The notes: generated by a model from the letters alone, not told the origin. A stretch of 64,000 nt of DNA from Patescibacteria group bacterium (GCA_050942955.1 JBMNOG010000005.1:307-64306), one strand, 5' to 3'; shown: positions 6,901-56,871, numbered from the stretch's first letter. Translations and numbers: made by a program.

Positions 6901-6903
6901 ATG

Positions 6904-27218: not shown

Positions 27219-27656
27219 ATGAATAAAGACCTAAAAGTTAAGGCTGTATATCCGTACGAAAGGAAAGAGGATTATAAGTTACCTCTTTACACCACCAAGG
27301 TTCCTGCCGGGTTTCCTTCTCCGGCTGATGACTATATCGAAAGTAAATTGGACCTAAACAAATTTCTGGTAAAACATCCTAGCGCTACGTTTTTTGTGAG
27401 AGTTGAAGGGGAGTCCATGAAGGACGCCGGTATTTACCCCAACGATATTCTGATTGTGGATAGAGCCGTAGAGCCTAAAGCCAACCACGTGGTTATTGCT
27501 GCTGTTAATGGAGAGCTGACAGTGAAAAGGATTTATGTTTCCCGAAAGAAGTTGTTCCTTATCCCCCAAAATCCCCAGTACAAACCTATGGAAATAACAA
27601 AGGATATGGATTTTGAGATTTGGGGGGTTGTTACTCACGTTCTTCACAAAGTCTAA
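27219..27656 (+). CDS. umuD: UmuD-like S24 peptidase (translesion polymerase accessory subunit)
   Basis: VPAGFPSPADDY...VRVEGESMKDAGIYPNDILIVDR...VIAAVNGELTVKRIY carries the Ser/Lys dyad context of UmuD/LexA C-terminal domains. Confidence 0.75.
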   Translation: MNKDLKVKAVYPYERKEDYKLPLYTTKVPAGFPSPADDYIESKLDLNKFLVKHPSATFFVRVEGESMKDAGIYPNDILIVDRAVEPKANHVVIAAVNGELTVKRIYVSRKKLFLIPQNPQYKPMEITKDMDFEIWGVVTHVLHKV

Positions 27657-27682
27657 ATTTTTCTTGGGTATAGTGGGAGGTA

Positions 27683-39022: not shown

Positions 39023-39808
39023 TTAATGCATACCATAAAAAAAAAGTTCACCTAAGCATGAGGGAAGAGGAAAACCTAAGAGTGAAAGAATTTGCGAAGG
39101 GTATTTTATAAGTATGTTTTGAACTGAATTTGGGATATGGGGAAAATACGGAGGATCCATAAGGCCATTGTAAAATGTCTTCATAGGAATAAAGCCTGCC
39201 TTTTTGACCATCAATCCCCACTCAAGTGGACTGTAGAAAGAAATGTGAGTAGGATCAGAAAAGCCAAACCATTTATCCCATTTCAATTGCAGGCCAAAAC
39301 TAGAGGGATTAGGAGCAGAGAAGACAAATATACCATCTGGTTTAAGGATTCTATAAATAGAATCTAATGTAGTGGGTTTAACTAGAACATGCTCCAGAAC
39401 ATCGAAACAAGTGATTACATCATATTTTTTAGCGGGGAGACTATCTAGATCGTATATCGATTTTATCTGAAAGTGTGCTTTTGGAGCTCTTCTTTTTGCC
39501 TCATTTAATCCGTTTTGTGATATATCAATTCCTGTACAATTAAAGTAATGTTGGGCGTGCTGCAAAAACAGACCATTGCCACAACCTATGTCGAGCAAAG
39601 AAGATTTTGACCGCTTCTGCTTCTTCAGGAAAGAAAATACTGGCTCTTTTCTGTCAATGTACTTAATAAATAGTTGTTGAAGGAAAGGTCTTTTACGATA
39701 CCTATTAAAGTAGTTTTTGTCGTATACTTCCTTTAGAAAGTTACTACTATTTTTCATAGAATTGTGATCAAACCTAGCGTTGCAGTTTTGATTCTTAATT
39801 ATAAACAA
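39023..39808 (-). CDS. Class I SAM-dependent methyltransferase (likely true start at the internal Met, ~39757)
   Basis: SAM motif I LLDIGCGNGLF. The acidic motif II CFDVLEHV. The annotated 5' end overlaps the divergent GT2 gene by 45 nt. Confidence 0.7.
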   Translation of the reverse strand: MFIIKNQNCNARFDHNSMKNSSNFLKEVYDKNYFNRYRKRPFLQQLFIKYIDRKEPVFSFLKKQKRSKSSLLDIGCGNGLFLQHAQHYFNCTGIDISQNGLNEAKRRAPKAHFQIKSIYDLDSLPAKKYDVITCFDVLEHVLVKPTTLDSIYRILKPDGIFVFSAPNPSSFGLQLKWDKWFGFSDPTHISFYSPLEWGLMVKKAGFIPMKTFYNGLMDPPYFPHIPNSVQNILIKYPSQILSLLGFPLPSCLGELFFYGMH

Positions 39809-40681
39809 CCTAACCTAACTTTACAGTGTCTTAAGAGTCTTTCCAAGCTTTCTTACTCTAATTACCATATTTATCTTTTGGACAATGAAAGTGATGGAAA
39901 CCTTGAAAAACGGCTTTCTCAAAACTGTAAACTCAAGTATTTTAAACGAAAAGATAATCTTGGGTTTACTAAAGGAAATAATTTTCTTATTAAGAAAGCC
40001 TTGAAAGATAAAGCTGAATATCTATTACTTTTAAATAATGACACAGAAATTAAACCTGGCCTTATTGAGGCGATGCTTGGTGAATATAAAGATGAAACAG
40101 CAGGTTTGGTAGGTTCGGTAATAACTTACTTTAATAAGTCAAATATAGTCTGGTTTGCAGGGGGGAGTTTGCATCCTCTTTTTTTCTATACCCGCCACCC
40201 AGGGATGAATAAAGTTTTTTCGAGTACGAGAAAACTTGGAAAGATAGACTGGATAACAGGCTGCTGTTTGATGATTAAAAGGAGTGTGATTGAGAAAATA
40301 GGACTGCTTGATGATGATTACGGTTCATATTGGGAGGATGTCGACTGGTGCTACAGAGTAAAACAGGCAGGCTATGGACTGAGAGTTGTTAATAAACCCT
40401 TAGTGCTTCATAAAGTCTCCTCAAGTTTTGGGAAACAAGGTACAAACACGCTAACTTCTCAAAGAGCTTATTTTTACGGCTGCAACCCAATGCTCTTTAT
40501 CCGAAAACATGTCAAAGGGTGGCGAAAGTATGTTGGGGTTTTAGGTCAGTTACTTTTGCAGTTGCCGTACTATATGTTTGTCATGGCCTTATCACGCCAA
40601 TTTTCTGCCATTATAGAATACCTGAGAGGAATAGTTGACGGTTTAGTAAAGGGAATTTCAAATCATAATAACAACTTCTAG
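39764..40681 (+). CDS. GT2-family glycosyltransferase
   Basis: VAVLILNYKQPNLTLQCLKSL...YLLDNESDG is the GT2 (GT-A) N-terminal fold with a DxD-like motif. Confidence 0.75.
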   Translation: MIKPSVAVLILNYKQPNLTLQCLKSLSKLSYSNYHIYLLDNESDGNLEKRLSQNCKLKYFKRKDNLGFTKGNNFLIKKALKDKAEYLLLLNNDTEIKPGLIEAMLGEYKDETAGLVGSVITYFNKSNIVWFAGGSLHPLFFYTRHPGMNKVFSSTRKLGKIDWITGCCLMIKRSVIEKIGLLDDDYGSYWEDVDWCYRVKQAGYGLRVVNKPLVLHKVSSSFGKQGTNTLTSQRAYFYGCNPMLFIRKHVKGWRKYVGVLGQLLLQLPYYMFVMALSRQFSAIIEYLRGIVDGLVKGISNHNNNF

Positions 40682-40696: not shown

Positions 40697-41572
40697 CTAC
40701 CTGTTTACCATTTTCCACACATAAGGGTTTCTTCCGAAAATATGAAAATCAATCCAGCCTAACATCCTGCCGTAGCCTTCAAGAGCTAAAAGTTTAAGCA
40801 GAGGAAGAAGGTCAGTCGGGTGATTTAGAAGATACTCCAGTATTGCTTTCAAACTGTTTTCAACCCCCATAGTAGATACCCTATAGTTATACTTAGCACT
40901 AATCCACTGATGTCCGGCATAAACTCTCCTGCGTTGTGTTAGGAATTCTTCAGTAGAAAGTGGAGCTTTATTGTAAACAATGGCTCTGGGAGCATAAACG
41001 ACCTTATACCCTACAAGCTTGAGAAGAACTTCCAAAGTGGCTTCATCAACCGCCGATTGTTCAGGAATGGAGTGAATAACGTTTCGGAAAGCGACCATCT
41101 CTCCGCACTTGGGATGTTTAAGTGAGACGTAATGATGCAACTCCCAGAGAAGTTTTACTTCTTTTCCAATACTGCTAAGATGAGAGTTTGAAGGAATAGG
41201 ATGGGCTCCAACCATACCAACGTCTTCGTGAAGGAAAGGAAGAGTGATTTCTTCTACTGCATCACTTCGAAGTCTCAAATCAGCACTGACTGCCAGTAGG
41301 ACTGAAGAAGAAGCCTTACGGACAAAAAGGTTTATGGCGGCAGATTTTCCCTCTCTTCTAAGTTGGTCCAAAAGCTTAACCCGGCTATCTTTCTTGGCTA
41401 GCTTTCTGGCAATAGTATTTGTATGGTCATTACTACCTGAAGAAATTATGAGAATCTCTTTGATTCGGGCGATCTCTAGGTTTTGTTTAAAGATAGAATT
41501 AACTGTTTTTTCAAGATTTTTTTCCTCGTTGTATGCAAAGATACCAATACTGACATTAATTTTTTTTGCCAT
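40697..41572 (-). CDS. GT2-family glycosyltransferase (start taken at Met-29 of the listed ORF, MAKKINVSIGIFAYNEE)
   Basis: VSIGIFAYNEEKNLEKTVNSIFKQ is a GT2 signature. The listed ORF's first 28 aa would overlap the upstream gene. Confidence 0.65.
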   Translation of the reverse strand: MAKKINVSIGIFAYNEEKNLEKTVNSIFKQNLEIARIKEILIISSGSNDHTNTIARKLAKKDSRVKLLDQLRREGKSAAINLFVRKASSSVLLAVSADLRLRSDAVEEITLPFLHEDVGMVGAHPIPSNSHLSSIGKEVKLLWELHHYVSLKHPKCGEMVAFRNVIHSIPEQSAVDEATLEVLLKLVGYKVVYAPRAIVYNKAPLSTEEFLTQRRRVYAGHQWISAKYNYRVSTMGVENSLKAILEYLLNHPTDLLPLLKLLALEGYGRMLGWIDFHIFGRNPYVWKMVNR

Positions 41573-43082
41573 ATGGATCGGAGTTCTGGGGATTAACATT
41601 AGCAGAGGCTGTGGTTTCAACTTTATACAGTTCCAGCCATTTTCCATTACTTTCAAACCGGTTTAACGGTTGTACTTGAAAGTAGTCAAGCAACTGCCGG
41701 CAATATCTTTGCCCGGGTGAGTATGGGTGTAGGTAGAGAATTTGTGTTTGCGAAGGGTGGTACTCAAAGTTTCTGCAGTAGTCAAAGTTGAAAACTTTCT
41801 GAGTGTAGCCTTGGTAAGGCTGGGTTAGTTGGTAGACTTCAGGAAAGTCTCCATATACTTCTGCGTTCTCAAAGTTTACCTGTAAGTAATGAGCTGCTTG
41901 AAGACCAATCGTAATGATATCCTGGTACGCTAGGTTTTCAGGGGGTCTAAAGTCATAAATGGCGGTTGGTTCGACCTTAGGGTGCCACAAGGAGAGAAAG
42001 ATAATGCAAGGAATAATTATTATCACCCAGAACACTTTTTGTGAAACAATTTTATAGACCAAATATACTGTTGTTATTGCAATAGGGGGTAGAAGAAAAA
42101 TACCATATCTTAGTCCGAATTCTCCCATGAGAGCATAAAAACTGATACCTGCTAATAAAGAGACGAGTAAGGCAGTAACTTTTGGGGTAATAGTCTCCTT
42201 AAGCATTTTACGTGATAAGAGAATAGCTAAGCTCAGTGCAGCGATTACTGTTAAAGACCAGCGGCCCTGGTCCCACAGCAAAGTTTTTACAACAAACGCA
42301 AATGATTGAGTTACTTGGGAAAAAGTGTGAGGCATGTAGTTTAGTCTGCCAGGCCTACTAAGATACCATCCGGTTTGCTGATAATGATAGAAAAGCCAGG
42401 AGAGTAAAGTTATAAGCGGTAATAGTAGAGGCAGGAAACTACTTCTTTGGATATTCTTTCTCTTAAAAAGGTAAACTGTAAACGCCAGGAGGAGAGTTAT
42501 AGCTGGCAGTTTTACCAAAACTGCTAATGAAAGCATGAGACTGGCTACTAAAATATTCTCGGAAAATAGCAATGCTATAGATGCTGTTGTTAACGCTGCC
42601 ATAGGCAGGTCAATATAAACAACCCCATACTCTGCAACTACGATGGGGGCTAGACCTACTAAAAAAGCACTTACAGCTCCGATAGTCAGGTTTAAGATTT
42701 TTTTACCAATAAAGTAAGTGCTTATCATTAAAAGAGGTAAGAAGGGAAACATTAGCAAATGAGAATTAAGGATTGTGTTCCCCAAAATTTTCCAGGTAAA
42801 ACCTAGTAGTATCATGAAAAGGGGTGGATGGGCAAAATCAGACCCAGTAGGAATGAGGGGGGAGAAGTTCGAATCTACAAGGTTTCTGGTAGTATTAATG
42901 ATAAAACCGGCACTATCCCAATGGTAGGGTAGATTTTTTGTGGTCCACCAAATTACAAAACTGTACAGGATTATCAGGCTTATGATAAGCACATCTACAT
43001 ACTTAATCTTCAAAAAGGTGGATTCAGTTTGAGGTTGAAGTTTGTTTAAAGATTTCTTGCGTTTCTTCTTTCCCATGCCCAT
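41556..43082 (-). CDS. PMT-like GT-C membrane glycosyltransferase (uncharacterised)
   Basis: 508 aa, multi-TM. The loop motif WDSAGFI...SDFAHPPLFMILLG echoes the D/E...HPPL motif of PMT-type enzymes. Confidence 0.45.
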   Translation of the reverse strand: MGMGKKKRKKSLNKLQPQTESTFLKIKYVDVLIISLIILYSFVIWWTTKNLPYHWDSAGFIINTTRNLVDSNFSPLIPTGSDFAHPPLFMILLGFTWKILGNTILNSHLLMFPFLPLLMISTYFIGKKILNLTIGAVSAFLVGLAPIVVAEYGVVYIDLPMAALTTASIALLFSENILVASLMLSLAVLVKLPAITLLLAFTVYLFKRKNIQRSSFLPLLLPLITLLSWLFYHYQQTGWYLSRPGRLNYMPHTFSQVTQSFAFVVKTLLWDQGRWSLTVIAALSLAILLSRKMLKETITPKVTALLVSLLAGISFYALMGEFGLRYGIFLLPPIAITTVYLVYKIVSQKVFWVIIIIPCIIFLSLWHPKVEPTAIYDFRPPENLAYQDIITIGLQAAHYLQVNFENAEVYGDFPEVYQLTQPYQGYTQKVFNFDYCRNFEYHPSQTQILYLHPYSPGQRYCRQLLDYFQVQPLNRFESNGKWLELYKVETTASANVNPQNSDPYGKKN

Positions 43083-45190: not shown

Positions 45191-45260
45191 ACAAAAAAAT
45201 AAAGTTTAAATTGACTATAACAGCTTTCCCCTATATTATGCAAAGTATACATTAATATCC

Positions 45261-47630
45261 TTGCTTGAACGTATGAAAAAAAACACAAAACCTACTTCAA
45301 AAGTCAGAAAGTCTACTAAAACTCGCCAGTCTTCCAATAAAAACAAAGTAAAATCTGCATCAAAGTCTTTAGTAAAAGCTGTAGTTACTAAGAAAACCAC
45401 TTCTAAACCCTCACTTATTAAGAGTAGTAAAACAGAAAAGCTGTTAAATTGTTACATTCCAAAAGTAGCTTGGTACGGTGCTTTAGTCTTAGGATTTGTT
45501 TTTTTTCTACTTTATCTTTTTACAGCTCCTAAAACAAACGTTGCTTACACTGATTCTGATCTCTTCCTAACAGTTGCCTATAAACTAGGACTTGCAGAAC
45601 CACCGGGTGTACCTTTATATATGGTGCTGCTTCATTTTTTTCTTAATCTCCCCATCCCGGGATCAATCGCTTTCAGGGGTCATTTTCTAAGCACCCTTCT
45701 GCATACAGGCTCTTTAGTTATTGTGTTTGTATCAGTATGGAGGTTAATTCAGTTTCTTCAAAACAACAACAATGCAAAACTAATAATAGTTTCAAAGCAA
45801 GTTGATAGGTGGTTAGTTAGTGGTATAGCTACAGCTTCCCTAGGATCTTCATACCTGTTTTGGCAGTACGGAATTGTAGCTGAAAAATATGCCTTTATTG
45901 ATCTTTTAGTTGCTGCTGTGATTGGTATTGGAGTTTATGTGGCTACTACTGCTAAATCAAAAACAAATCTTTCTTACTGGTATGCCCTTGCCGGTTTAAT
46001 TGGGATCTTAGTTATTCATCATCCAATCTCTTTTGTTTTACTGCCTTTTGTCGCAATTTTAGTTTGGTTGAAAAAAGATATCTTTTCGAGAAAACAATAT
46101 ATGGGAATGGTGTTATCACTGTTAGTTTCTATAAGTATTAGCATAGGTGTTTTACTTGGATTAAATGCCTTAGAAAGAGAAATTAACTGGAACTTTAAGC
46201 CAACTGTTAAAGAAACAATAGACTATGTGTTTACCCAGGGTTTTAGTCGTAGTATTGCTGAAAACTTTGAAGAATACTCAGCCTTTGCTCAGATTAGCAG
46301 TGGCTCAGTTTTTAAGTCCTTAATGCAGTTTGGTAAAGTGTTTGTACAGCACTTTGGTTTGGGATCAGTCGCGCTTTTAGTGGTAGGAATTGCCTTTTTA
46401 TACTCCTCTTCAAAAAAAATGAGTTTAGTAATTCTAAGCGGCTGGACAACCGTAGGGCTGTTACTACCAGTGTTTCTGAAATGGCCAGAGAGCATGAGTT
46501 TTCAGGCTTTACGGGTACGTGACTACCTTATGGGGTACATGTTTACTCCTTTACTTGTAGGTTTGGGGGGTTGGATGGTGCTGGCGCGGTTTAATAAAGC
46601 TCTTAAAATACTTTTGCAAAACAACCGTGTTTCAACAGGGGTTACTCTTGTTGTTCCTGCGCTCATTTTAATCGTATCTATTGTAAATACTTTTAAACAC
46701 GTAAATTTACGTAACTTTACAGTATTTAGCCGTTTTCATGAATCGGTTCTTGAAAACCTTCCTCATGATGCGCTGATTGGATGTTTTACGGATACGACTT
46801 GCTCAGCTCTTTTGTATGAACAAGAGGTTAAAGGTGTAAGAAAAGATGTAATTATTGTTTCTCCTTCGCACCAGTTAATACAGAAAAAGCTTAACAGTAT
46901 TGATAACCTCAAAGGTTTTGATTACACGAATAATACCTGGTTGGTGCATGACTACTTGACTTGGAATATCGGTAAAAGGCCGGTGTATGTTATTGATCTA
47001 CCTAAAACCTATTACAACCTTCTCGGTTTAACCTACGGATTTACGTACTACATTCCAAATGGGTATGTAGGTGAATTGACTCGTGAAGTTCCAGAGGTAA
47101 CTCCATCTGTCAAGTATTCTTTTTCCGAAGAGATCGAAAACATGAATGTTCCCTCAAAAGACTTAATGCGGACTTGGCTTAAAACCTCATACGCACAGCT
47201 CCATTACTTTAATGCCGTCATGTATCTAAAAATGGATTACAGGAGCTTGGCGCGGTCAGAGTTGAATACTTTTTCTAACATTCTCCATCAAGTAGAAGCT
47301 ATTTCTAATAAAGAGATAGAAGATTCTCGGAGCTATGTTGAAGGTTCTCATCCATTAGTCAATTTTTCGCCTGGATCTGAAGTACAGCCTCTTAGCGAGA
47401 TTATGAACGGAGTTAACGCGTATTTAAATGATGGGAAACTACAGAGAGCATATACAGGTGCACTGGGGATTATTACAATTGATCCGCTCAATGAAGAAGG
47501 TCGGCTGAAACTGGCTGAGATTTATGAAAAAATGGGTAATACCCAAATGGCAAAAGTGGAGTATCAGCACGTGCTCAAGTATTACCCAAGTAACACTCAA
47601 GCTCAAACTAAACTTGCAGAGCTTAAATAG
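45261..47630 (+). CDS. DUF2723/TMEM260-like GT-C glycosyltransferase with C-terminal TPR repeats (paralog 1)
   Basis: Basic Ser/Lys-rich N-terminus. Multi-TM domain with YTDSDLFLTVAYKLGLAEPPGVPLYMVL. TPR repeats at the C-terminus. Confidence 0.55.
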   Translation: MLERMKKNTKPTSKVRKSTKTRQSSNKNKVKSASKSLVKAVVTKKTTSKPSLIKSSKTEKLLNCYIPKVAWYGALVLGFVFFLLYLFTAPKTNVAYTDSDLFLTVAYKLGLAEPPGVPLYMVLLHFFLNLPIPGSIAFRGHFLSTLLHTGSLVIVFVSVWRLIQFLQNNNNAKLIIVSKQVDRWLVSGIATASLGSSYLFWQYGIVAEKYAFIDLLVAAVIGIGVYVATTAKSKTNLSYWYALAGLIGILVIHHPISFVLLPFVAILVWLKKDIFSRKQYMGMVLSLLVSISISIGVLLGLNALEREINWNFKPTVKETIDYVFTQGFSRSIAENFEEYSAFAQISSGSVFKSLMQFGKVFVQHFGLGSVALLVVGIAFLYSSSKKMSLVILSGWTTVGLLLPVFLKWPESMSFQALRVRDYLMGYMFTPLLVGLGGWMVLARFNKALKILLQNNRVSTGVTLVVPALILIVSIVNTFKHVNLRNFTVFSRFHESVLENLPHDALIGCFTDTTCSALLYEQEVKGVRKDVIIVSPSHQLIQKKLNSIDNLKGFDYTNNTWLVHDYLTWNIGKRPVYVIDLPKTYYNLLGLTYGFTYYIPNGYVGELTREVPEVTPSVKYSFSEEIENMNVPSKDLMRTWLKTSYAQLHYFNAVMYLKMDYRSLARSELNTFSNILHQVEAISNKEIEDSRSYVEGSHPLVNFSPGSEVQPLSEIMNGVNAYLNDGKLQRAYTGALGIITIDPLNEEGRLKLAEIYEKMGNTQMAKVEYQHVLKYYPSNTQAQTKLAELK

Positions 47631-47635
47631 CTGCC

Positions 47636-49885
47636 ATGAAGTTAACTAACAGTAAGTTTAAAGTTATCGGTGCTTTTGTAGTATGTTTACTTTCCTTTGC
47701 TCTTTATACATACAGTGCGGCTAGGACAAACCCTGGATATGCGGATTCAGATGAGCTCATTACTGCTGGTTATCTCCTAGGTTCAGCTCACCCTCCAGGG
47801 TATCCTCTTCAGATAGTTCTAGTTAAACTGTTTACCCTGCTTCCTGTTCCCGGAACAGTGGCATTTAAAGCTAATCTTCTCGCCGCTTTTCTGCAGAGTT
47901 TGACTGTAGTTTTCACCTATCTTACCGGTTTGGAAATATTGCTATTATTAACTTCCAGAAAAAAACTCAAAAAAGAAAAAGACGAAAAGCTTGCAAACGT
48001 TACTATTTTACATACTGTAGTTTCAGCTGGTGGGGCTCTACTACTGGCTCTTTCGGCGCTTTTCTGGCTTTACAGCTCAGTAATTGAAGTAATGTCCTTG
48101 AATAACTTCCTGGCAGCTTTAGCAGTCTGGTGCGGCTTTCAGTGGAAAAAGAACTATAAAAAAACAAAACAAAAGCAGGATATTCCTTGGTTTTTAGCAA
48201 CCTGTTTCGTAGTAGGTTTAGGGCTGTCTCATGTTCATACTTTTGTCCTGCTACTTCCTGGATTTGCCTTTCTGCTTTTTATAACCATATATAAAAAGGG
48301 TAACTGCCAGAAGGAGATAGCAGAGAGAGGGCTATATATTCTAGGCGCAGTTTTACTCGGATTTTTGTCACCTAACCTTTTGCTTTTTTGGTTGAATACT
48401 AGAAAAGCAAAAGTCAGTTGGTACTTCCCTCAGAGCTTACAGGGATGGATTAATCACATTAGTAGAAGAGTGTACTCAGGGTATTTAGTGGAAAACAGCA
48501 GTGAAGTTAGTGCTTACCTGGCCAAGTTTAACCTTAGCCAATACGTAAAAACCTTCCCTTTATATTGGCAGTTTTTAGGTTCTCATTTTGTCTATGTTGG
48601 ATTGGTCCTTGGACTAGTGGGAGTTGTTTGGCTAGCCAGAAAACACAGAGAGTTGCTAATGGTATTGGGTACACTTTACCTTTTTCCAGGTCTACTACTG
48701 GCTCTTTACATGGGAATGCCGGACAAATCTCCGGTAGAGAATCTGGAGTATCGAAGCATTGTAGGAGTTTCCCAAAGGCAAATGCTATTGGGTGAAACTA
48801 TGTGGGGACTTCTAGTTATTGTAGGTTTGTGGGGAGTAGTTACCTTACTTCATCACTTCATAAAAAATAAAATTGTAGCTCTCTTTTTAGGAGTTTCATT
48901 CTTAGTGCTTACGTTAGGCTTATCTTTTTGGCAGAACCGGACAATGGGAGTGCAAAGAAACAACACTATTGCCTGGGACTATGCCAAAGAAGTCTTAAGC
49001 AAAGCTGAAGAAAACTCTGTTCTTATTTGTTTTGCTGACTTTTCTTGCTTCTCTTTGTTTTATATGCAGGAAGTTGAGGGTTTTCGTCCTGATGTAGCTG
49101 TCCTTAGCAAAAATGCATACCTTAAAAAGAATTACTTGGAAAAGAACCCTCATCTTAAAGGTTTTGATTATATTGATAATCCTTACTTTGTGGCTGATTT
49201 AATTACCTGGAATGTTAGCCAAAGAACGACATACCTTACAGACACCTCAGGTTTTTACTCTAAATACCTTGGTTTTGAAGGTGATCCGTTTTATTTGGTT
49301 CCGGAAGGATATCTCTACCGAGTAACTACAAAACTGCCTCAAAAAGTGTCTGATAATGACTATACTCTTACACAAAAACTGTTGCACTTATCGAAATCAG
49401 AAAAAGATTACTGGATAAATGGGTTGCAGGATTACTTTGCCAACTTCCATACTATTAGTGGTACCATTTTTAGCTACTTAAATGAAAAAGAAGAAGCAAG
49501 GGAAAACTTTAGATTAGCAACTGAACTTTCGCCAGACTATGCTTTAGCTCAAACACTTCAAGATAGTCTCTCCGGATATTTTGGCAATCCTAACTATGAA
49601 TTAGGTCAAGAAAGTTCTAGTTCGGCAGAGTTTTTACAAAGTGGCCTTGAGAAAATTGAACAGGGAGAAATCGAAGCTGCTTATAAAGATATTCAAAAAG
49701 CTACATTTCTTGATCCTCTTAATAAGGATGCGAGACTTAAGTTGATGGAACTGTACGAACTGGGAGGATATTACCGTGAAGCTGTCATGGAATGCCGTAA
49801 TATTCTCAAGTATTATCCAGAGGAGCCAGGAGTAGTTGAAGAATTAAAACAACTTGAAAATGCAATTAAAACTGAGATTAATTGA
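47636..49885 (+). CDS. DUF2723/TMEM260-like GT-C glycosyltransferase with C-terminal TPR repeats (paralog 2)
   Basis: YADSDELITAGYLLGSAHPPGYPLQIVL motif with the same architecture. Starts 5 nt after paralog 1. Confidence 0.55.
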   Translation: MKLTNSKFKVIGAFVVCLLSFALYTYSAARTNPGYADSDELITAGYLLGSAHPPGYPLQIVLVKLFTLLPVPGTVAFKANLLAAFLQSLTVVFTYLTGLEILLLLTSRKKLKKEKDEKLANVTILHTVVSAGGALLLALSALFWLYSSVIEVMSLNNFLAALAVWCGFQWKKNYKKTKQKQDIPWFLATCFVVGLGLSHVHTFVLLLPGFAFLLFITIYKKGNCQKEIAERGLYILGAVLLGFLSPNLLLFWLNTRKAKVSWYFPQSLQGWINHISRRVYSGYLVENSSEVSAYLAKFNLSQYVKTFPLYWQFLGSHFVYVGLVLGLVGVVWLARKHRELLMVLGTLYLFPGLLLALYMGMPDKSPVENLEYRSIVGVSQRQMLLGETMWGLLVIVGLWGVVTLLHHFIKNKIVALFLGVSFLVLTLGLSFWQNRTMGVQRNNTIAWDYAKEVLSKAEENSVLICFADFSCFSLFYMQEVEGFRPDVAVLSKNAYLKKNYLEKNPHLKGFDYIDNPYFVADLITWNVSQRTTYLTDTSGFYSKYLGFEGDPFYLVPEGYLYRVTTKLPQKVSDNDYTLTQKLLHLSKSEKDYWINGLQDYFANFHTISGTIFSYLNEKEEARENFRLATELSPDYALAQTLQDSLSGYFGNPNYELGQESSSSAEFLQSGLEKIEQGEIEAAYKDIQKATFLDPLNKDARLKLMELYELGGYYREAVMECRNILKYYPEEPGVVEELKQLENAIKTEIN

Positions 49886-50996
49886 TTACCGGTGTCTCAG
49901 TTTGAATAATAACCTCATTATACTTTTCAACGACAATTTTTTTGTTGCCTTTAAAATCGCTTAACCATAAACGTTTAAACTGAGCTGGTCCGTCGGGAAC
50001 GATTTCCTCAATGAGAAATTGGTTTTCAGACCAGGGGATGGAGCGGGGCTTGTTAAGTTCTGAAGCAATAGTTATTGGAGTACGTGCTACCTCTTTTCGT
50101 TGATAGTAATCGAAAACATGCCAGTATCCCTTTTTGCTTAAAACAAAAATTTTATCGTTAATACATTTCACAGATAGAATAGCATTATCTTCATTCAAGG
50201 AAACAATAGTTTCCGGGTTTTCAGGATTGATAACGGTGTAAAGCTCAAGTGTACTATTGTTAATAGTAACCACTCCAGTAGAGTCAGGTGCCCAAAAAAC
50301 ATAGTTTCTGTCTGCTAGATTAGTTTTGGTGGAGAACTGATGAGATGATCTCCCTCCTTTTGTAGTAAACATGAATTTGGGTTTATCAGTTGTTTGTCCG
50401 TATCCTGAAACGAACAGAATCATACTCCCATTAGGTGAAAGTTTAAAGACGTTACCGTAAGGGTAAGGGATGGGAGCTTGAATCACAGTTCCATTTGCCA
50501 GGTTATGATGGTACAGAGTATTTCCTTCATCTGTGATAAACATAACAACATTTGAGTTAGGAGAGAAATCTAAGTATGGATTGGTGTTAAGGAAACTATT
50601 TGGAGGGTAAATACTGTAAATTTCTTGTGATTTAATACTTAAAGCCATTACACCTTTAATAGGAGTGTACCAAACGACCCATTGCTTAGTTGGACTTATA
50701 ATAAAGCTCTCTATTTCGGGTGCTGGGGGTTGTTCTTCACTTTTGAAAGCATAGATAGCAAGAGGTCTGGCAAACTCAGGGTCAACAAGGTAAAGGGAGT
50801 TATTATTTGCAAACGCAACTAAACTATTTCCCTGAAGGATATCATCTATAGAGATTGGACTATTTTCTACTGGGTTTTCAGGACCTTTTGAACTTAGTTG
50901 AAACTGAGAAAAATCAATCTTTGGGGAACAGGCTGTTAAAAAGAGTCCTAAAAGGCAGAAAAGAACTAGGTAAATACCATACTTAATTGATCCCAT
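49878..50996 (-). CDS. Secreted lipoprotein, probable beta-propeller (TolB/WD40-like) fold
   Basis: Lipobox LFLTAC. Repetitive beta-strand-rich sequence. Confidence 0.4.
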   Translation of the reverse strand: MGSIKYGIYLVLFCLLGLFLTACSPKIDFSQFQLSSKGPENPVENSPISIDDILQGNSLVAFANNNSLYLVDPEFARPLAIYAFKSEEQPPAPEIESFIISPTKQWVVWYTPIKGVMALSIKSQEIYSIYPPNSFLNTNPYLDFSPNSNVVMFITDEGNTLYHHNLANGTVIQAPIPYPYGNVFKLSPNGSMILFVSGYGQTTDKPKFMFTTKGGRSSHQFSTKTNLADRNYVFWAPDSTGVVTINNSTLELYTVINPENPETIVSLNEDNAILSVKCINDKIFVLSKKGYWHVFDYYQRKEVARTPITIASELNKPRSIPWSENQFLIEEIVPDGPAQFKRLWLSDFKGNKKIVVEKYNEVIIQTETPVIN

Positions 50997-51052
50997 ATTA
51001 TCTCGGTAGCGAACCTACCTCATACTATACCATACTTTATGAACAAGGGAAG

Positions 51053-52474
51053 TTACTTCTGCTCTTTAACTTGCTTAACTTTGTCAGTGTTGATTTCATC
51101 TAAAATACTGCTAACAGATTCACTAAATTCTGCCTCAAATCTTTCTTTGCCTTCTTTTTCTTTTATTATTTCCATCTTGCTTTCTAGTGCTGCCAACTCT
51201 CCTGATATTACTTCCTGAATATAACGCACTTTAAGCTTATTGCTTCGCGAGTTCATGACCATCTTCCAGATGATGATAGTAAGCAGCATAAGGAAAGTGA
51301 GAGTAGAGATGAAGTTAATAAGAACAACAGTCTTATCGGCTCTAGATTTACCCGGAATGAGCAGATCTCTTAAACTCTGAACAGACATAACTTCTCCAGC
51401 CTCCCCTGGTTCCATGGGGTATGATTCAGGAATTTCAAACGGGGTGGCATTGGGTCTTGGAGTGAGGTTAATTGGTGCTGGTACTGTATTATCTTCTTCT
51501 ACCACTTCAAGTTCACTAGTTCCCGATGTGCTCGTTTTTTTTGTGCCACCGCTACTTTTAAAGTTATCAGTAACGTCAACTACATTGACATCGTCAAATA
51601 GAGTAGTTTGGTTAACAATAGGAGTTGGGTTCGGGTTGGCTGAGGCTGTGGCTGTAGGGGTAACTGTGGGTGTAGGTGTTGGCGTTGGTGTTGGTGTAGC
51701 TGTAGGCTCTGATGAAGAAGTTGGAGTAGCTGAGGGAGTAGGGCTAGGAGAGGGTGTGGGTGTAGCAACTGTTTCTCCTTGAATACTAATATTAAATATC
51801 GGTTGTGTTCCGGGTGTTTTAATTTGTCCATTATAAAGTAGGATAATATCTGAAAAAGTCATGGAGGTATTGCCTGGAGCATATGGTTTTATGACAAAAG
51901 TAGCAATCTTACCGTCTCCGTTAAATCCATCTGTGCCTCCGACCCCTGCAGTAAAGATGATTTTATGGTTGTAGGCGTAAGGTGTAGAAGTGCTGTAATC
52001 TTTTCCTGGTGGAACAGAGTTTGCAGGGGTGAAAAAGGGGAAAACAGTCCCATTTTTATTAATTCTTGCCGTTATCCAGCCCGCCCAGTAGCCATTAATG
52101 TCAGACTGGAAGTAATCAGGAGAATAGTTAACAACCACCTGCATTGTACCTATTTGTTGGCTGCAAGTATTGAGCCGTAATTCCACTGTTGATTCTGTCC
52201 CTGCAGTGAATCCCGTACTGGAGCTTAAGTAGAAAAATGGAGCATTTCCTTGTTCCTCGCAGGTGTAAGCGTATACGCTAGGAGTAAGAATTCCAAAAAA
52301 AAGGAAAGAAATAATCAGTAGTAGAAAAAACCTAACTAGCTTAGAATTCATAGTCTGCCTAAAATTATGCCTGGTTGAGAAACATTTTTCAATGAAGAAG
52401 TTTAAATACATCAAGAGTGTCTGTCTACTAGGCTTTTCTTTTTCTAATAAGCCACAAGATTGTGTTAACTGCAA
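51053..52474 (-). CDS. Surface protein: cohesin-like domain, PT-rich linker, TM anchor, cytoplasmic coiled-coil tail (probable true start at MNSKLVRFF, ~52351)
   Basis: Signal peptide after Met-42. Cohesin-like segment ATFVIKPYAPGNTSMTFSD. A (TPTPSP)n linker. TM segment LTFLMLLTIIIWKMVM. Confidence 0.45.
   Translation of the reverse strand: MQLTQSCGLLEKEKPSRQTLLMYLNFFIEKCFSTRHNFRQTMNSKLVRFFLLLIISFLFFGILTPSVYAYTCEEQGNAPFFYLSSSTGFTAGTESTVELRLNTCSQQIGTMQVVVNYSPDYFQSDINGYWAGWITARINKNGTVFPFFTPANSVPPGKDYSTSTPYAYNHKIIFTAGVGGTDGFNGDGKIATFVIKPYAPGNTSMTFSDIILLYNGQIKTPGTQPIFNISIQGETVATPTPSPSPTPSATPTSSSEPTATPTPTPTPTPTVTPTATASANPNPTPIVNQTTLFDDVNVVDVTDNFKSSGGTKKTSTSGTSELEVVEEDNTVPAPINLTPRPNATPFEIPESYPMEPGEAGEVMSVQSLRDLLIPGKSRADKTVVLINFISTLTFLMLLTIIIWKMVMNSRSNKLKVRYIQEVISGELAALESKMEIIKEKEGKERFEAEFSESVSSILDEINTDKVKQVKEQK
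51610..51770 (-). repeat. Pro/Thr-linker codon repeat (GGTGTTGGCGTTGGTGTTGGTGTAGC on the + strand)
   Basis: Short tandem units encoding (TPTPSP)n. They produce a spurious GVGVGV ORF on the plus strand. Confidence 0.55.
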
Positions 52475-53162
52475 AGATACATCCCAATGTACCGATAGTG
52501 GTTATAAATACCCAGTTAGTTGGTGTTTGAGTGATGGTTTTTGAACTAGATACAGAAGAATCGCCATCATAAAAAGGAATAGCAGGTGCAAAAGTAGAGT
52601 TAGTTTCAAACTGGGGTGGAGGAGTGCCATCAGGTTCTCCGATTTTCATCCTAAAACTATCCATAGCTCCCGGCTTGATAATTGTGCCCAAAAACTGAAA
52701 ACTGGGATAGACAAAGGAAATTGCAGTATATCCCTTCTGTTTTGCTTTTAAGGAGAAAATTGCTATTAGACCTTCATCGTCATCATATGCTTTTGATTCA
52801 GGAAAACTGCAGGCAAAGATAAGTTTAGAACCGTAGTAGTAAGGGGTAGTCCTTTCAAAATTTTCACCGGGAGGGATTGAGACGGCCGGCTTCCATGAGG
52901 AACAAACTGAATTTTGAACATTAAGAGCATGAAAGTCCCAGTACTCCTCATCAAACTGAATAGCAATTTGCACTGTTTCCAGTTGGCTGCCATCACTGTT
53001 TAAGAATAACTTGAAAATGCCAACATCACCTTCGTTATAGTACTCTTCGCCAGTAAGGTAAAAAAAAGGATTTGCGGTAACTACGGAAGGATGCGCTAAT
53101 ACACAAAAAGAAAGAATGATTGTAATAGAAAAACTTCGGATTAATAGTCTCAATCTAATCAT
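52428..53162 (-). CDS. Cohesin-like domain protein with a C-terminal TM anchor (paralog)
   Basis: PFFYL...TPYYYGSKLIFA...IAIFSLKAKQKGYTAISFV parallels the neighbouring gene. C-terminal TM followed by RKRKA. Confidence 0.45.
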   Translation of the reverse strand: MIRLRLLIRSFSITIILSFCVLAHPSVVTANPFFYLTGEEYYNEGDVGIFKLFLNSDGSQLETVQIAIQFDEEYWDFHALNVQNSVCSSWKPAVSIPPGENFERTTPYYYGSKLIFACSFPESKAYDDDEGLIAIFSLKAKQKGYTAISFVYPSFQFLGTIIKPGAMDSFRMKIGEPDGTPPPQFETNSTFAPAIPFYDGDSSVSSSKTITQTPTNWVFITTIGTLGCIFAVNTILWLIRKRKA

Positions 53163-53232
53163 ACCTTCAACGTATCTTAGAATTATGACGATTTAGACTG
53201 GAATTTGCAATAAACGGAAGTTTTAAAAATAT

Positions 53233-53778
53233 TCAGATGTGGTTGACGATCATCACGGTTTGTTCAGAGGGTTGTGAAAAAATGTTGGTTCCCTTGCCGT
53301 CATTTAAAAGGATCAAGCTGTTTTCACTAATCTTTATTTTAGTTTCTCCGACCGTTTTTGCCATAAAAGTGATTTCAGCAATAGTGTTTTGCCCTTTAAA
53401 ACCCGGACTGGGAGATCCGCACTCAATAGAAATTGTTCCTTTTGTATCGTTAAATTTATTAACAGGATAAAACTGGCAAAAAGATTTTGAAGTATCCACA
53501 TTCACAATGGAAAGTTTGTCAGGATCGAATGATACAAAAAGAGCCACCGCGTTTGCAGCTTGATTATCGCTATCAGCTATAATTTGTGCTTTGAACATAG
53601 TACTAACTAAAACTTCCCTATCGGCTTCAATATAAAATGCACCATTTCCTTGTGTTTTTTTACCCAGCACTAGTTTTCCAAAAAAATTTTGGCTTATTAA
53701 AATATAGCTTAAGGAAATGAGAGCAATTAAAGCAAAAGAGGCTAAAACTACCCAGTAGAATAGTTCTTTTCGTTTCAT
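53233..53778 (-). CDS. N-terminally anchored cohesin-like domain protein
   Basis: N-terminal TM. Segment NTIAEITFMAKTVGETKIKISENSLILLNDGKG resembles cohesin beta-sandwich strands 8 and 9. Confidence 0.45.
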   Translation of the reverse strand: MKRKELFYWVVLASFALIALISLSYILISQNFFGKLVLGKKTQGNGAFYIEADREVLVSTMFKAQIIADSDNQAANAVALFVSFDPDKLSIVNVDTSKSFCQFYPVNKFNDTKGTISIECGSPSPGFKGQNTIAEITFMAKTVGETKIKISENSLILLNDGKGTNIFSQPSEQTVMIVNHI

Positions 53779-53779
53779 T

Positions 53780-55474
53780 TTAAATGAATTCTAGAGAGCT
53801 CAATATAACATCTATTCTCTTTGCATCATCCTCTGAGAGAGTAGGACTGAAGGTAGCATACCAAATATCAAAAATATAGTCATTGTGTTTGACTAGATAT
53901 TTATCTCCAGGATACTCGGAAAAGTCTTCAAGCTCCAAAAACAATGCCTCTTTATTTTTAAATGTAGTCTCTTTAACCTTGTAGTTTAAACTGCTGGCCT
54001 TTATTAGTTTCCAGTATTCTTTAACTTCTAGGGCAGTCTCAGCGACTTGAATCTTAAAAATGTACCCTGTCTTTCGGATGAAAGTGATACTACTGTCAGT
54101 TTTAATAACATTCACCGCATTTTTGGGATAGTTTAACTGTATACCGATAGTGCCATCCTTAATAGTATCCCACTGGGTTTCGGCAAAAGGCACATTAGCT
54201 TGTGATTCTGCATACTTCTCGTCACTTACCCCTTTAGTTTGAGGTTGAGATTGCGTTTGAGTCTCAGGAGGAGTGGTTGGCTGAGAAGATTCGTTTATTT
54301 TTTTTCCCAACTCTGCTTGTTCTGTTACTGGTTGAGCGTCAGGGGGCAGATATTCTTGGAGTAGTGTTGTATCTACTTCCGTATTGCGGTTGAGAGTCAT
54401 CCATACAACTCCACCAATAATTGAAACTAAAAGTATTGTTGAACCTAGAACTACAAGAGGTTTAGGGATCTTCGAAAAGAACCCTTTTTTTTCATTTTTT
54501 TCAGGTTGGGTTGGGGTTTGCTTAGTTGATGGTTGGTTTTGGGCCAATTTATCCTGGACGGGAACTGACTGTGCTGGTTGCTCTTGAGTTAGCCTAGATT
54601 GCTCTGATTGAGTAGTGGTCGCTTGTTCAGGTTTTTGCTCCTCTGGTTTGGCTGCTGGTTGAGTCTGAGGTTGAGATTCTTGTGGAGAGGTATTAGTTTC
54701 GGTTGATGTACTTACTTGAGTATTAGTTTGAGATGCTTCCGGTTGGACAGGCGCAGGTGAAGCAGATACTGGTGCCGGCTGGTTTACGGGAGTAGTCACT
54801 GCAATCTTTTCGCTCTCAATTAGTTGATTCATGGCTTGAACTACTTCCTGAAGCTCTTTAGAAATGGTGAAAAACTTATTCTTGGTGATAGGCTCACTGC
54901 GATGCATGTCTTTTCGTAAGCTCTTGATGGTACTCTCCAGTTTCTTCTTCTCGTCAGTAAAAGAATCCTTCATCTCTTCAAGTTCTTTTTTAAGACGGCT
55001 TTCTTTTTTTGAAGAATGTTCTATTTTCTTTTCGATGAGTGAAAGTTTCTCATTCACATCGTGATTTACAAAATCCGGCTTATTGTCTACTTCTGCTTCT
55101 TGTTCAACTATGCTTTTTGGTAGTGAAAATTCCTCTGATAAGCTAGTCTCTGAAGCTGGAAGTTCGGTCTCAGAAACTGGCGACAAAGTGGAGTTATGCT
55201 TTTGAGAAACTTTTTCTATCTGTTTAATAGATTCAAGCTTTTCTAACTGAGTTTTTATCTTCTGATCCAATTCCTCTTTCAATCTTTGAGCTTGTTTAAT
55301 TTTCTCTTCAAGCTCGTTGAGCTCAGGAGCGTCCTGTTTTAAGGGTGGATTAGACTTAGAAGAGGAGATAGGCGAATAAGATTCCTGGGATTGCTTCAGA
55401 CGTTTAATTGGTCTGTAAAATCCAGGTTTTGACCGGCCTGCGGAACTAGTAAGATACTTCTTTGTTCTTGCCAT
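53780..55474 (-). CDS. Large coiled-coil / PQT-rich protein with a central TM segment (hypothetical)
   Basis: N-terminal coiled coils, a Gln/Pro/Thr-rich region, a TM (VVLGSTILLVSIIGGVVWM) and a C-terminal globular domain. Confidence 0.45.
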   Translation of the reverse strand: MARTKKYLTSSAGRSKPGFYRPIKRLKQSQESYSPISSSKSNPPLKQDAPELNELEEKIKQAQRLKEELDQKIKTQLEKLESIKQIEKVSQKHNSTLSPVSETELPASETSLSEEFSLPKSIVEQEAEVDNKPDFVNHDVNEKLSLIEKKIEHSSKKESRLKKELEEMKDSFTDEKKKLESTIKSLRKDMHRSEPITKNKFFTISKELQEVVQAMNQLIESEKIAVTTPVNQPAPVSASPAPVQPEASQTNTQVSTSTETNTSPQESQPQTQPAAKPEEQKPEQATTTQSEQSRLTQEQPAQSVPVQDKLAQNQPSTKQTPTQPEKNEKKGFFSKIPKPLVVLGSTILLVSIIGGVVWMTLNRNTEVDTTLLQEYLPPDAQPVTEQAELGKKINESSQPTTPPETQTQSQPQTKGVSDEKYAESQANVPFAETQWDTIKDGTIGIQLNYPKNAVNVIKTDSSITFIRKTGYIFKIQVAETALEVKEYWKLIKASSLNYKVKETTFKNKEALFLELEDFSEYPGDKYLVKHNDYIFDIWYATFSPTLSEDDAKRIDVILSSLEFI

Positions 55475-55556
55475 GACAGAAGTTTAGGAAAAGATACCTT
55501 ATATAACAGTAGCAACTTTGGATTTTTCTTGCAAGATGGAAGAAAGATTACTACTG

Positions 55557-56801
55557 CTATGTTCCCCAGTAGTACATCATAATGCTGAAGTCGATTAGGT
55601 TGACAGTCCCGTCGCTATTAATATCCGCTGAAGCACTGGTAGTTCCCCAGTAGTACATGAGAATACTGAAGTCAGTGAGGTTAGTGTGAGAATCACAGTT
55701 CAAATCTCCTTGAGAAATACCACAGCCTGGAGGTGAAGGAGTGGGTCCGGAACTGGGTAAAACTGAAAATTGCAAGGAGTTACTAAAAAGACTTTGGGAA
55801 CCTGTACCATTTTGGACTAAGCTATAGATTCGGTAGTCTCCCGGTATATACTCACTTGTGTTGTCTATAGTGTAATCCCAATTTCCAGAAGTATCTGCAG
55901 TAGCGTAGTAGGTTCTGAGAGGAGATTCAGTAAAAATACTCAAGTCTCCTGAAATAATTGTTGAACCGCTAACAATAAGCGGGTCACCTTGAGTAACTTC
56001 GGTTGCATCAATTTCAATCGTTGGCGAAAGCAGAAGGTCAGATACAGTAGTCTGTTGATAAATTGGAGTTTGAACTTCAATAGGAAGGATGGATGTAGTT
56101 CGATTGTCTAGATCAACTCCGTACATAGTGATATTATGAGTTCCGGGATCAAGTCCAAGCAGTAGTTTGGTAAAGGTACCAAGTAGGCCTGCAGTTTCTG
56201 TTCCGATCACAGTACCGTTTTCTGTAAAAGTGATAAATGTTCCGGGTGCAGAATACCCTGAAATGAGTAGAGAAGCTGTAGCCGGAGCAATAGATGCAGA
56301 TACAGTGACTGATCCACCCCATCCTGTAGCGAGGAATGAAGTAATGTTTTTAATAATCAGCCCTTCAGCATCTTCAGTGACACTTACCTGAACCTGGTAA
56401 AGGTTTTGAGAGTCTGGGTTAGTAGCTGTTATACCTGAGATGGTAATTCTATTACCTCTTAGAACAGCTATCCCGGTGACTTTTATCGTGTTTCCTTCCT
56501 GACTAAACTCAGGATTTCCGAGATAACTTCCTGTTACTTGTCCGTTAACAAGTGTAACGTCGGTAAAATGTGGTAAATCTATGTGAATGTAGTCAGATGA
56601 ACTGATAATTTCAGAATCCAAAGGCAAAGTAAAACTGACCATGTGAGAAACGTTAGGCAAACTAGTTTGGTCGTGGCTAATAACATCCTGTCCATCAAGT
56701 AAATAGCCTGAGGCATGAGCTAAGGGGGTAAAAATTAGGCTGACTAAGGGAAAAATACAAAGAAGGCCAAAATAATAGCGAGCAGTATGAGGCATAAGCA
56801 A
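55557..56801 (-). CDS. Secreted Ig-like repeat protein with a C-terminal type-I dockerin module
   Basis: Signal peptide. The C-terminus has two 22-aa Ca-binding repeats, GDLNCDSHTNLTDFSILMYYWG and ADINSDGTVNLIDFSIMMYYWG, each fitting DxNxDxxxNxxD. Confidence 0.6.
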   Translation of the reverse strand: MLMPHTARYYFGLLCIFPLVSLIFTPLAHASGYLLDGQDVISHDQTSLPNVSHMVSFTLPLDSEIISSSDYIHIDLPHFTDVTLVNGQVTGSYLGNPEFSQEGNTIKVTGIAVLRGNRITISGITATNPDSQNLYQVQVSVTEDAEGLIIKNITSFLATGWGGSVTVSASIAPATASLLISGYSAPGTFITFTENGTVIGTETAGLLGTFTKLLLGLDPGTHNITMYGVDLDNRTTSILPIEVQTPIYQQTTVSDLLLSPTIEIDATEVTQGDPLIVSGSTIISGDLSIFTESPLRTYYATADTSGNWDYTIDNTSEYIPGDYRIYSLVQNGTGSQSLFSNSLQFSVLPSSGPTPSPPGCGISQGDLNCDSHTNLTDFSILMYYWGTTSASADINSDGTVNLIDFSIMMYYWGT

Positions 56802-56871
56802 TTACTAGCTACCAAAGAATAGTTAGTCCTTCCATGATTGTAGCAAGAGGGGTAGAAAGAAAAAAGATAGA

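Follow-up and report, generated by a model that had tools for sequence, protein, structure and literature searches.

We analysed a 64,000-nucleotide stretch of DNA from a Patescibacteria group bacterium (GCA_050942955.1 JBMNOG010000005.1:307-64306), referred to here as the window, with a focus on two adjacent open reading frames, ORF1 and ORF2. A first reading made from the sequence alone (the sequence-only reading) had placed two tandem genes for a TMEM260/DUF2723-like O-mannosyltransferase with TPR tails at 45261-49885, and open reading frames exist at exactly those coordinates, with 5 nt between the ORF1 stop codon and the ORF2 start (Table 1). The public gene call for ORF1 starts at ATG 45273, and the 785-amino-acid (aa) protein that it gives is probably the true product. 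The promoter-like site upstream is only suggestive as an ORF1 promoter, because the region has no more sites of this kind than expected (10 against 12). The window belongs to a metagenome contig of 81.8 kb, and its genes are also present on a 128-kb contig.

Table 1. Coordinates of the two GT117 genes, of parts within them, and of other features of the window discussed in the text
Feature	Coordinates	Strand	Remarks
ORF1, upstream GT117/TMEM260-like paralog	45261-47630	+	789 aa from TTG
ORF1 first extracytoplasmic loop (sugar-recognition motif region)	45552-45620	+	DSDLFLTVAYKLGLAEPPGVPL
ORF1 donor-loading-loop positions	46233-46244	+	T325 for phosphate-binding R264, F328 for Y267
ORF2, downstream GT117/TMEM260-like paralog	47636-49885	+	749 aa
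ORF2 sugar-recognition loop	47744-47812	+	DSDELITAGYLLGSAHPPGYPL
ORF2 Rossmann-like extracytoplasmic alpha/beta domain	49010-49360	+	carries D468 (human D441)
ORF2 C-terminal TPR-like helical repeats	49364-49882	+	residues 577-748
Promoter-like site TTGACT-17-TATTAT	45211-45239	+	just 5' of ORF1; 10/12 consensus matches
Convergent operon, seven exported/membrane-anchored proteins	49878-57819	-	syntenic with the GT117 pair; candidate acceptors
DUF5752 protein, cytoplasmic, 204 aa, no transmembrane segment	43130-43744	-	PF19027 at 1e-10
GT2 gene (40697-41656) overlapping a polytopic GT-C-like gene (41556-43082)	40697-43082	-	HWDSAG...FAHPPLF in the latter
Protein O-mannosyltransferase (PMT, GT39)	4399-5697	-	FDEVY loop-1 motif, residues 51-55
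TMTC-like gene, transmembrane region and TPRs	62716-64000	-	3' two-thirds of a 637-aa gene; full length at L003:4161-6074

The TMEM260/DUF2723 assignment was borne out for both genes. PF11028 (TMEM260-like/DUF2723, CAZy family GT117) matches ORF1 with 71.4 bits (E 1e-19) and ORF2 with 119.3 bits (E 2e-34), the gathering score being 24.2 bits, and phmmer searches of PDB sequences matched the human TMEM260 chain 9rql_A directly to ORF2 (E 1.4e-22, query residues 14-517 on human residues 30-491) and to ORF1 (E 4.9e-14). For ORF2, a precomputed match to PF28495 (TMEM260_2) is also on record. No PMT or MIR domain was found in either protein, and the NCBIfam models gave no family-level name for any of the window's glycosyltransferases. 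The two proteins are full-length paralogs, as the sequence-only reading had proposed; with 27% identity over the full length (E 7e-69), they are old paralogs and not the result of a recent duplication. Their nearest database relatives are labelled 'DUF2723 domain-containing protein [Candidatus Beckwithbacteria]', and remoter ones 'glycosyltransferase family 117 protein'.

AlphaFold2 models of ORF2 (predicted local distance difference test, pLDDT, 93.3; predicted template modelling score, pTM, 0.93) and of ORF1 (pLDDT 87.5, pTM 0.86) share one domain order, in which a GT-C membrane core is followed by a variable transmembrane (TM) module, a Rossmann-like alpha/beta domain and a TPR tail. Compared by description, this order agrees with the cryo-EM structure of human TMEM260, which consists of a GT-C core (TM helices 1-7), a variable module (TM helices 8-11), a luminal Rossmann-like domain and a TPR domain (bioRxiv 10.64898/2026.03.17.711096). 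Foldseek searches against the PDB placed GT-C enzymes at the top for ORF2 (PglB, Pmt4, ALG12, Pmt1), and the best matches of ORF1 were STT3, PglB and ArnT, with arabinosyltransferases also among the matches. The Pmt4 and Pmt1 matches span about 280 residues, and the tail portion matches TPR proteins. As to the architecture claimed by the sequence-only reading, the loop region and the TPR tail are there, but it had been overlooked that a Rossmann-like domain separates the TPRs from the membrane part. In the ORF2 model this domain has strands at residues 462-465, 488-491, 532-534, 553-557 and 560-564, and its D468 is at least 90% conserved, the alignment being to human residues 437-445. The TPR tails of both proteins are real, though weak by hidden Markov model (HMM): single TPR HMMs score below their cut-offs, but designed CTPR proteins match the tails, and the models show helical repeats there. 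At its other end, ORF1 has a disordered (pLDDT <50), strongly basic, Lys/Ser/Thr-rich cytoplasmic N-terminal tail (residues 1-65; 45261-45455), and N-terminal tails of at least 25 residues occur in 8 of 60 ORF1-type and 0 of 54 ORF2-type proteins of the representative set described below.

The human enzyme allows the residues of both proteins to be interpreted one by one. In human TMEM260, R264 is the phosphate-binding residue, contacts with the mannose are made by D52, H67, Y267 and R355, and D441 of the Rossmann-like domain is the proposed catalytic base; the mutations D52A, H67A, R264A, Y267A and D441A abolish activity, and about 20% remains in R355A (bioRxiv 10.64898/2026.03.17.711096). 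When the family is aligned together with the human fragment, ORF2 is seen to retain all six of these residues (D37, H52, R277, Y280, R381 and D468), and is for that reason predicted to be an active enzyme. A donor sugar of mannose or a similar hexose would likewise fit, since the sugar-contacting residues are conserved. The equivalents in ORF1, given in the order D52, H67, R264, Y267, R355 and D441, are D98, E113, T325, F328, R420 and D511. Three of the six are thus replaced (H67 by Glu, R264 by Thr, Y267 by Phe), so that ORF1 lacks the complete active-site set, and it is still a family member by homology. Loop 1 of ORF1 is altered in two further places, with Leu for E55 and Val for Y71, and keeps the D52 equivalent. 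The sequence-only reading had described a D-S-D-E...HPPGYPL motif in both genes; it is exact in ORF2, where the region reads YADSDELITAGYLLGSAHPPGYPL (DSDE...AHPPGYPL), but ORF1 reads YTDSDLFLTVAYKLGLAEPPGVPL (DSDL...AEPPGVPL). The donor loop of ORF1 is predicted to be disordered (pLDDT <50 at residues 329-339) and is placed differently by phmmer and MAFFT, with no Arg at the R264 position in either placement.

A search for related loci with a family alignment of clade B gave 10 loci. All seven Beckwithbacteria-like loci contain tandem GT117 pairs or arrays, and a single copy is present in three more distant loci, two of which are titled Gottesmanbacteria. A neighbour-joining tree resolves three clades, namely that of ORF2, that of ORF1 and one more. 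Within the paired loci the downstream copy is canonical in 7/7 cases and the upstream copy degenerate in 5/7. ORF1 orthologs occupy the same position in all seven, with 28-48% identity between genomes. At the positions of D52, E55, H67, Y71, R264, Y267, R355 and D441, in this order, the five degenerate upstream copies have D L E V T F R D in the window (ORF1), D K K F Q F P E in L008, Y E R Q S F R D in L009, F E R Y S F R D in L012 and D E H F K F R E in L010. One related genome contains an expansion far larger than the pair of the window, namely five head-to-tail GT117 genes of 730, 743, 708, 735 and 746 aa (L005:7812-19047, the same as L007; CAZYTL010000002.1), all of which keep the equivalents of D52, H67, R264, R355 and D441. 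Several contigs with a clearly Patescibacteria-type locus (L007, L009-L013) are titled 'uncultured Pseudomonadales' or 'Gammaproteobacteria bacterium', and these titles are probably mislabels.

The difference between the two types of copy is also visible in a much larger sample. In an exhaustive search of 1.84 billion representatives, 16,393 counted as family members at E <=1e-3, and at the stricter E <=1e-10 there were 6,934. The best full-length representative matches were clustered, and a protein was called canonical if it had D, H, R, R/K and D/E at five key positions, Y267 being excluded; Phe or Leu at the Y267 position is a feature of the ORF1 clade. By this definition, 53/54 cluster representatives of the ORF2 type are canonical versus 37/60 of the ORF1 type (Fisher p = 5e-7), and in the cluster that contains the upstream copies of L009 and L012 none of the six is.

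In each genome pair the upstream copy evolves faster and is conserved to a lower degree than the downstream one (for example, 43.6% versus 54.8%, and 47.8% versus 65.5%). No ortholog pair exceeds 66% identity in protein sequence, and synonymous sites are therefore saturated. The ratio of upstream to downstream conservation is 0.48 in the donor-loading loop, 0.64 in the variable module, 0.66 in TM2-7, 0.71 in loop 1, 0.82 in the Rossmann-like domain and 0.87 in the TPR domain, that is, the conservation deficit of ORF1-type copies lies mainly in the donor-binding parts and not in the acceptor-side domains. The replacements themselves are inconsistent, with E, K, R, A, Y, Q, P, L and others at the H67 position and T, Q, S, K and others at the R264 position, and the donor loop is shortened in three upstream copies. 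Such inconsistency is in keeping with a relaxed constraint on donor binding, the protein being retained for a different reason.

A separate GT117-like subfamily of about 735-760 aa also came to light (P0147, P0152-P0154, P0160, P0161, P0163-P0165, P0167, P0173, P0180, P0187 and P0193). Its 14 members have SPGYP for HPPGYP, GYLGDG in the donor loop and C-x-x-Y-x-S-C for C-F-x-D-x-S-C. The equivalents of H67, R264 and D441 are missing from 14/14 representatives, which looks like a fixed alternative and not like random decay.

The two genes form an old and tightly coupled operon of GT117 GT-C glycosyltransferases in a Beckwithbacteria-like genome, and related Patescibacteria genomes have it as well. 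We consider it somewhat better than an even chance, at a probability of roughly 0.55, that ORF2 is the active enzyme of this operon and ORF1 its auxiliary partner. ORF2 would act as a polyprenyl-phosphate-hexose:protein O-glycosyltransferase. A polyprenyl-phosphate hexose, with mannose the likeliest sugar, would bind to its membrane core on the outward-facing side of the membrane. An exported protein would be gripped in extended form by its TPR and Rossmann-like domains, and D468 would activate a Ser/Thr hydroxyl for sugar transfer. ORF1 would be an ancient paralog that kept the fold and the acceptor-side domains and lost the sugar-contacting His and Tyr together with the phosphate-binding Arg; it most likely transfers sugar inefficiently, and would have an auxiliary role beside ORF2 in acceptor binding or scaffolding, possibly in a physical partnership. 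More tentatively, the pair may be obligate in Patescibacteria, composed of a canonical catalytic subunit and a paralog that keeps the Rossmann-like/TPR acceptor-binding module but whose donor site has decayed repeatedly. If so, ORF1 could conceivably be a GT-C 'pseudo-glycosyltransferase' whose task is to bring nascent surface proteins rich in S/T/P to O-glycosylation, a proposal we put forward with some doubt.

Candidates for such acceptors are encoded next to the pair. The convergent operon downstream consists of genes for a lipoprotein, three cohesin-like proteins, a 564-aa S/T/P/Q-rich low-complexity protein, a dockerin-bearing protein and a WxLIP-like protein. One of the cohesin-like proteins, encoded at 51053-52474, bears a TPTPSPSPTPSATPT... 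linker (TPTPSPSPTP...) with 34 S/T/P residues within one 40-residue stretch, in agreement with the S/T/P-rich secreted proteins noticed in the sequence-only reading. The gene order DUF5752, GT117 pair, convergent surface-protein operon, PPDK is conserved in L004, L008, L009 and L012 and partly in L010 and L011. Synteny with the surface-protein operon persists even in genomes whose GT117 proteins share no more than about 30-55% identity with ORF1 and ORF2, the figure for L010 and L011 being only about 30%. We infer that the syntenic S/T/P-rich surface proteins are the likeliest acceptors.

The DUF5752 protein is 54-77% identical in L004, L008, L009, L010 and L012, and its gene adjoins the GT117 pair in four of these five other carrier genomes, L010 being arranged differently; in the window, a GH13 gene separates the two. 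Apart from PPDK, the DUF5752 gene is by far the most conserved neighbour. The wider neighbourhood encodes GT2, GT4, GT-C, methyltransferase, GH13 and glycogen-synthase proteins. Within the surface-protein operon, three consecutive genes at 51053-53778 (minus strand) encode related cohesin-like domains with an N-terminal ...PFFYL... motif, with a weak Cohesin match at 53233-53778. Together with the dockerin-bearing protein at 55557-56801, the cohesin-like genes hint at a cohesin-dockerin surface assembly in this lineage.

Several points weigh against an active ORF2 with an auxiliary ORF1. Every functional step is transferred from the human enzyme at an identity of about 25% (range about 19-26%), and our literature search found no functional study of any bacterial GT117 protein. 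Divergent loops align imperfectly across the family. ORF1 keeps D98, R420 and D511, and R330, an Arg five positions beyond T325, might stand in for R264, in which case ORF1 could be active, perhaps with another donor. The finding that 37/60 ORF1-type proteins are canonical means that the ORF1 clade is not generally inactive, and the representative set behind that count was drawn with an ORF1-clade profile. On the acceptor side, strict, core and loose versions of the human IPT-domain sequon (P..GP..GGG...T type) were all unmatched in window ORFs of at least 100 aa, and the synteny between the GT117 pair and the surface-protein operon may be plain inherited gene order among related genomes. On the donor side, no polyprenyl-phosphate-mannose synthase could be identified with confidence in the 64-kb window.

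Part of this evidence can be read as a sign that both proteins are independently active and sub-functionalised, with ORF1 using a different lipid-linked donor and/or different acceptors and its loop changes representing new specificity. The retention in ORF1 of the D52, R355 and D441 equivalents and of the entire fold is compatible with this, as are the majority of canonical proteins in the ORF1 type with Phe/Leu at the Y267 position as a clade feature, the resemblance of the five all-canonical tandem copies of one related genome to specificity diversification, and the existence of a separate 14-member subfamily with its own conserved alternative motifs. However, the inconsistent replacements at the H67 and R264 positions and the three shortened donor loops resemble relaxed constraint rather than a new conserved site, and loss of the phosphate-binding Arg should impair the binding of any polyprenyl-phosphate donor. 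We regard two separately active enzymes as unlikely, though worth keeping in view.

It is less likely still that the acceptor of the pair is not a protein but, as for many bacterial GT-C enzymes (ArnT, Emb/Aft), a cell-wall polymer, a lipoglycan or a lipid, with the TPR tail serving envelope localisation instead of peptide binding. ArnT and arabinosyltransferases are indeed among the structural matches, the neighbouring GT2, GT4, GT-C, methyltransferase, GH13 and glycogen-synthase genes would suit such a role, no acceptor for bacterial GT117 emerged from the literature search, and the human sequon is absent from the window proteins. Yet the closest characterised sequence relative is a protein O-mannosyltransferase, the D441 equivalent and the peptide-gripping Rossmann-like and TPR modules of the human enzyme are conserved, and the conserved neighbours are S/T/P-rich exported proteins. 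That ORF1 is a redundant duplicate decaying to a pseudogene, with no function of its own, is highly improbable: its evolution outpaces that of ORF2 in every comparison, and key residues are gone, but its reading frame of 785-789 aa is intact, its fold is confidently predicted, its orthologs are kept at the same position in 7/7 paired loci and, in the extracytoplasmic domains, its conservation comes close to that of ORF2.

An active ORF2 beside an auxiliary ORF1 can be compared with several known systems. Human TMEM260 (GT117; PDB 9RQL/9RQM/9RQN), the endoplasmic reticulum protein O-mannosyltransferase for IPT domains, resembles both proteins in PF11028 and in domain order. It has all six key residues in common with ORF2, unlike ORF1 with its three essential replacements. 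The differences are that ORF1 and ORF2 are bacterial and of low identity to it (the range given above), that the human protein is a single chain in the cryo-EM structures as opposed to the conserved tandem pair here, that it uses a dolichyl phosphate donor where a bacterial polyprenyl phosphate is expected here, and that the IPT sequon was not found in the window proteins; nor was a TIG/IPT Pfam domain found in the scanned proteins of the 64-kb window. NCBI proteins named 'DUF2723 domain-containing' or 'glycosyltransferase family 117' carry the same names and the same PF11028 and PF28495 domains, but these annotations are labels only, and the pairing of a canonical with a degenerate copy is not part of them.

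The PMT/POMT enzymes (GT39; yeast Pmt1-Pmt2 and human POMT1-POMT2) share with ORF1 and ORF2 the GT-C fold, an acidic first-loop residue and the occurrence as paired paralogs, and the polyprenyl-phosphate-mannose donor and S/T-rich acceptors of these enzymes would presumably be shared as well. Unlike in PMT/POMT, the luminal module of ORF1 and ORF2 is Rossmann-like plus TPR, with no PMT/MIR domain. Both subunits of Pmt1-Pmt2 retain their catalytic residues, and ORF1 does not. In the accessory Sec system, GtfA-GtfB consists of an active GT-B O-GlcNAc transferase and, encoded next to it, a non-catalytic paralog of the same fold that has lost donor-site residues and binds the S-rich acceptor protein. 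The pair studied here would be similar by analogy only, and GtfA-GtfB differs in its GT-B fold, cytoplasmic location and nucleotide-sugar donor and has no homology to ORF1 or ORF2.

Other glycosyltransferase-like genes of the window had led the sequence-only reading to count three O-mannosyltransferase-like GT-C families. Several such genes do lie beside S/T/P-rich exported proteins, but they divide less cleanly into three families, and mannose as the sugar, proteins as acceptors and a substrate-specialised glycosylation system were inferences. The gene at 4399-5697 is the clearest case. PF16192 (101.8 bits, 4.5e-29), PF13231 (43.8 bits, 4.2e-11) and PF02366 (40.8 bits, 2.5e-10) all match above their cut-offs, and with its FDEVY motif the gene is, judged by its sequence, a bona fide PMT as had been claimed, although a divergent one, scoring 66 bits against the NCBIfam PMT equivalog with a cut-off of 800. 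Directly downstream, at 2710-4380 (minus strand), lies a gene for a 556-aa polytopic membrane protein, which has at least eight TM segments and ends in a soluble domain. No Pfam family matches this protein; it is perhaps another enzyme of GT-C type, or a partner of the PMT.

The proposal of a second PMT-like gene at 41556-43082 was not supported, as its match to PF13231 (PMT_2) is below threshold (18.4 bits versus a cut-off of 26.1, E 0.0026), and the gene has no PDB sequence match. With at least nine TM segments and a WDSAG...AHPPLF loop, it is a plausible GT-C protein. The GT2 gene that it overlaps, at 40697-41656, matches PF00535 at 3e-21, and no TM helices are predicted for it. Its similarity to PDB sequences is generic and confined to roughly the first 100 aa (DPMS 5mlz, 4.9e-4; GtrB 5ekp, 6e-4; ArnC, 5e-3), and no NCBIfam model is near its cut-off. 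The two genes, which are also found near the GT117 pair in L009 and L012, could possibly encode a polyprenyl-phosphate-sugar synthase and a further GT-C transferase. A second GT2 gene at 39764-40681 is rhamnosyltransferase/SpsA-like. The check for a polyprenyl-phosphate mannose synthase of the GT2 family that the sequence-only reading had suggested thus turned up two GT2 genes, one of them overlapping a GT-C gene, but neither is identifiable as such a synthase.

TMTC proteins carry DD in loop 1 and SHKSYRP-like and ERxxY-like motifs, and human TMTCs score below 1e-30 for DUF1736 (PMC7801869). In this family a DUF1736 (PF08409) segment is expected between TM7 and TM8. The gene at 62716-64000 resembles TMTC1-4 (GT105) in its TM domain followed by TPRs, which give strong matches, and in motifs recognised by eye: GFVGDDFDF, HEGVYRP, LLFGVHPIHTE and GEKYAY, from which DD in loop 1, YRP, VHPIHTE and E-K-x-x-Y were read as TMTC-like. 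Unlike TMTC1-4, it has no DUF1736 match; its 440-aa membrane part has no Pfam match at all at E <=0.1, and no PDB or NCBIfam match. The TMTC-like call thus stands on layout and motifs and finds no echo in HMM or PDB searches. We also considered this gene as a third GT117 copy and rejected it, since its GT117 HMM match comes essentially from the TPR repeats, through which alone it resembles ORF1 and ORF2.

The window has other contents unconnected with the pair. At 5749-8403 (minus strand) there are genes for two Cys-rich secreted proteins, the first of which has three C-E-Y-[IV]-C-x-D-D-[YH] repeats and a C-terminal LPKAGG followed by a hydrophobic stretch, resembling a sortase-type sorting signal. 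The protein encoded at 22608-23162 (plus strand) begins with a Gly/Tyr-rich low-complexity region (GGYGGYGGYGGYYDPY...) followed by a BON domain. A damage-response cluster at 27219-29834 (plus strand) consists of a LexA-like S24 peptidase, the UV endonuclease UvdE and a Y-family polymerase (IMS/DinB-like, DUF4113), and is followed by a UvrD helicase. Scans for tRNA and Rfam families gave only a tRNA-Gln, which is unrelated to the GT117 finding.

The family as such is already known, since Pfam, CAZy and the NCBI annotation all include it. That human TMEM260 is an O-mannosyltransferase was not recognised until 2023, with a structure following in a 2026 preprint (bioRxiv 10.64898/2026.03.17.711096), and bacterial homologs had already been noted in the 2023 paper (PMC10214176). 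As far as can be told, the pairing of a canonical with a degenerate copy and the synteny with surface-protein genes are new observations. Were the pair model false, the genes would simply be two more annotated DUF2723 proteins. Bacterial TMEM260 homologs amount to thousands of sequence clusters, and the locus described here offers a compact bacterial context for their study, in which a predicted active enzyme, a conserved paralog with an eroded donor site and candidate acceptors are combined, with PMT-type and TMTC-like genes nearby. If the two proteins do form an obligate pair, bacterial TMEM260 homologs would gain their first functional model and the O-mannosyltransferase-like GT-C families a subunit arrangement not reported before, the eroded copies would serve as natural 'mutants' for interpreting TMEM260 disease variants, and protein O-glycosylation would be a major investment in the envelope biology of small-genome episymbiotic bacteria.

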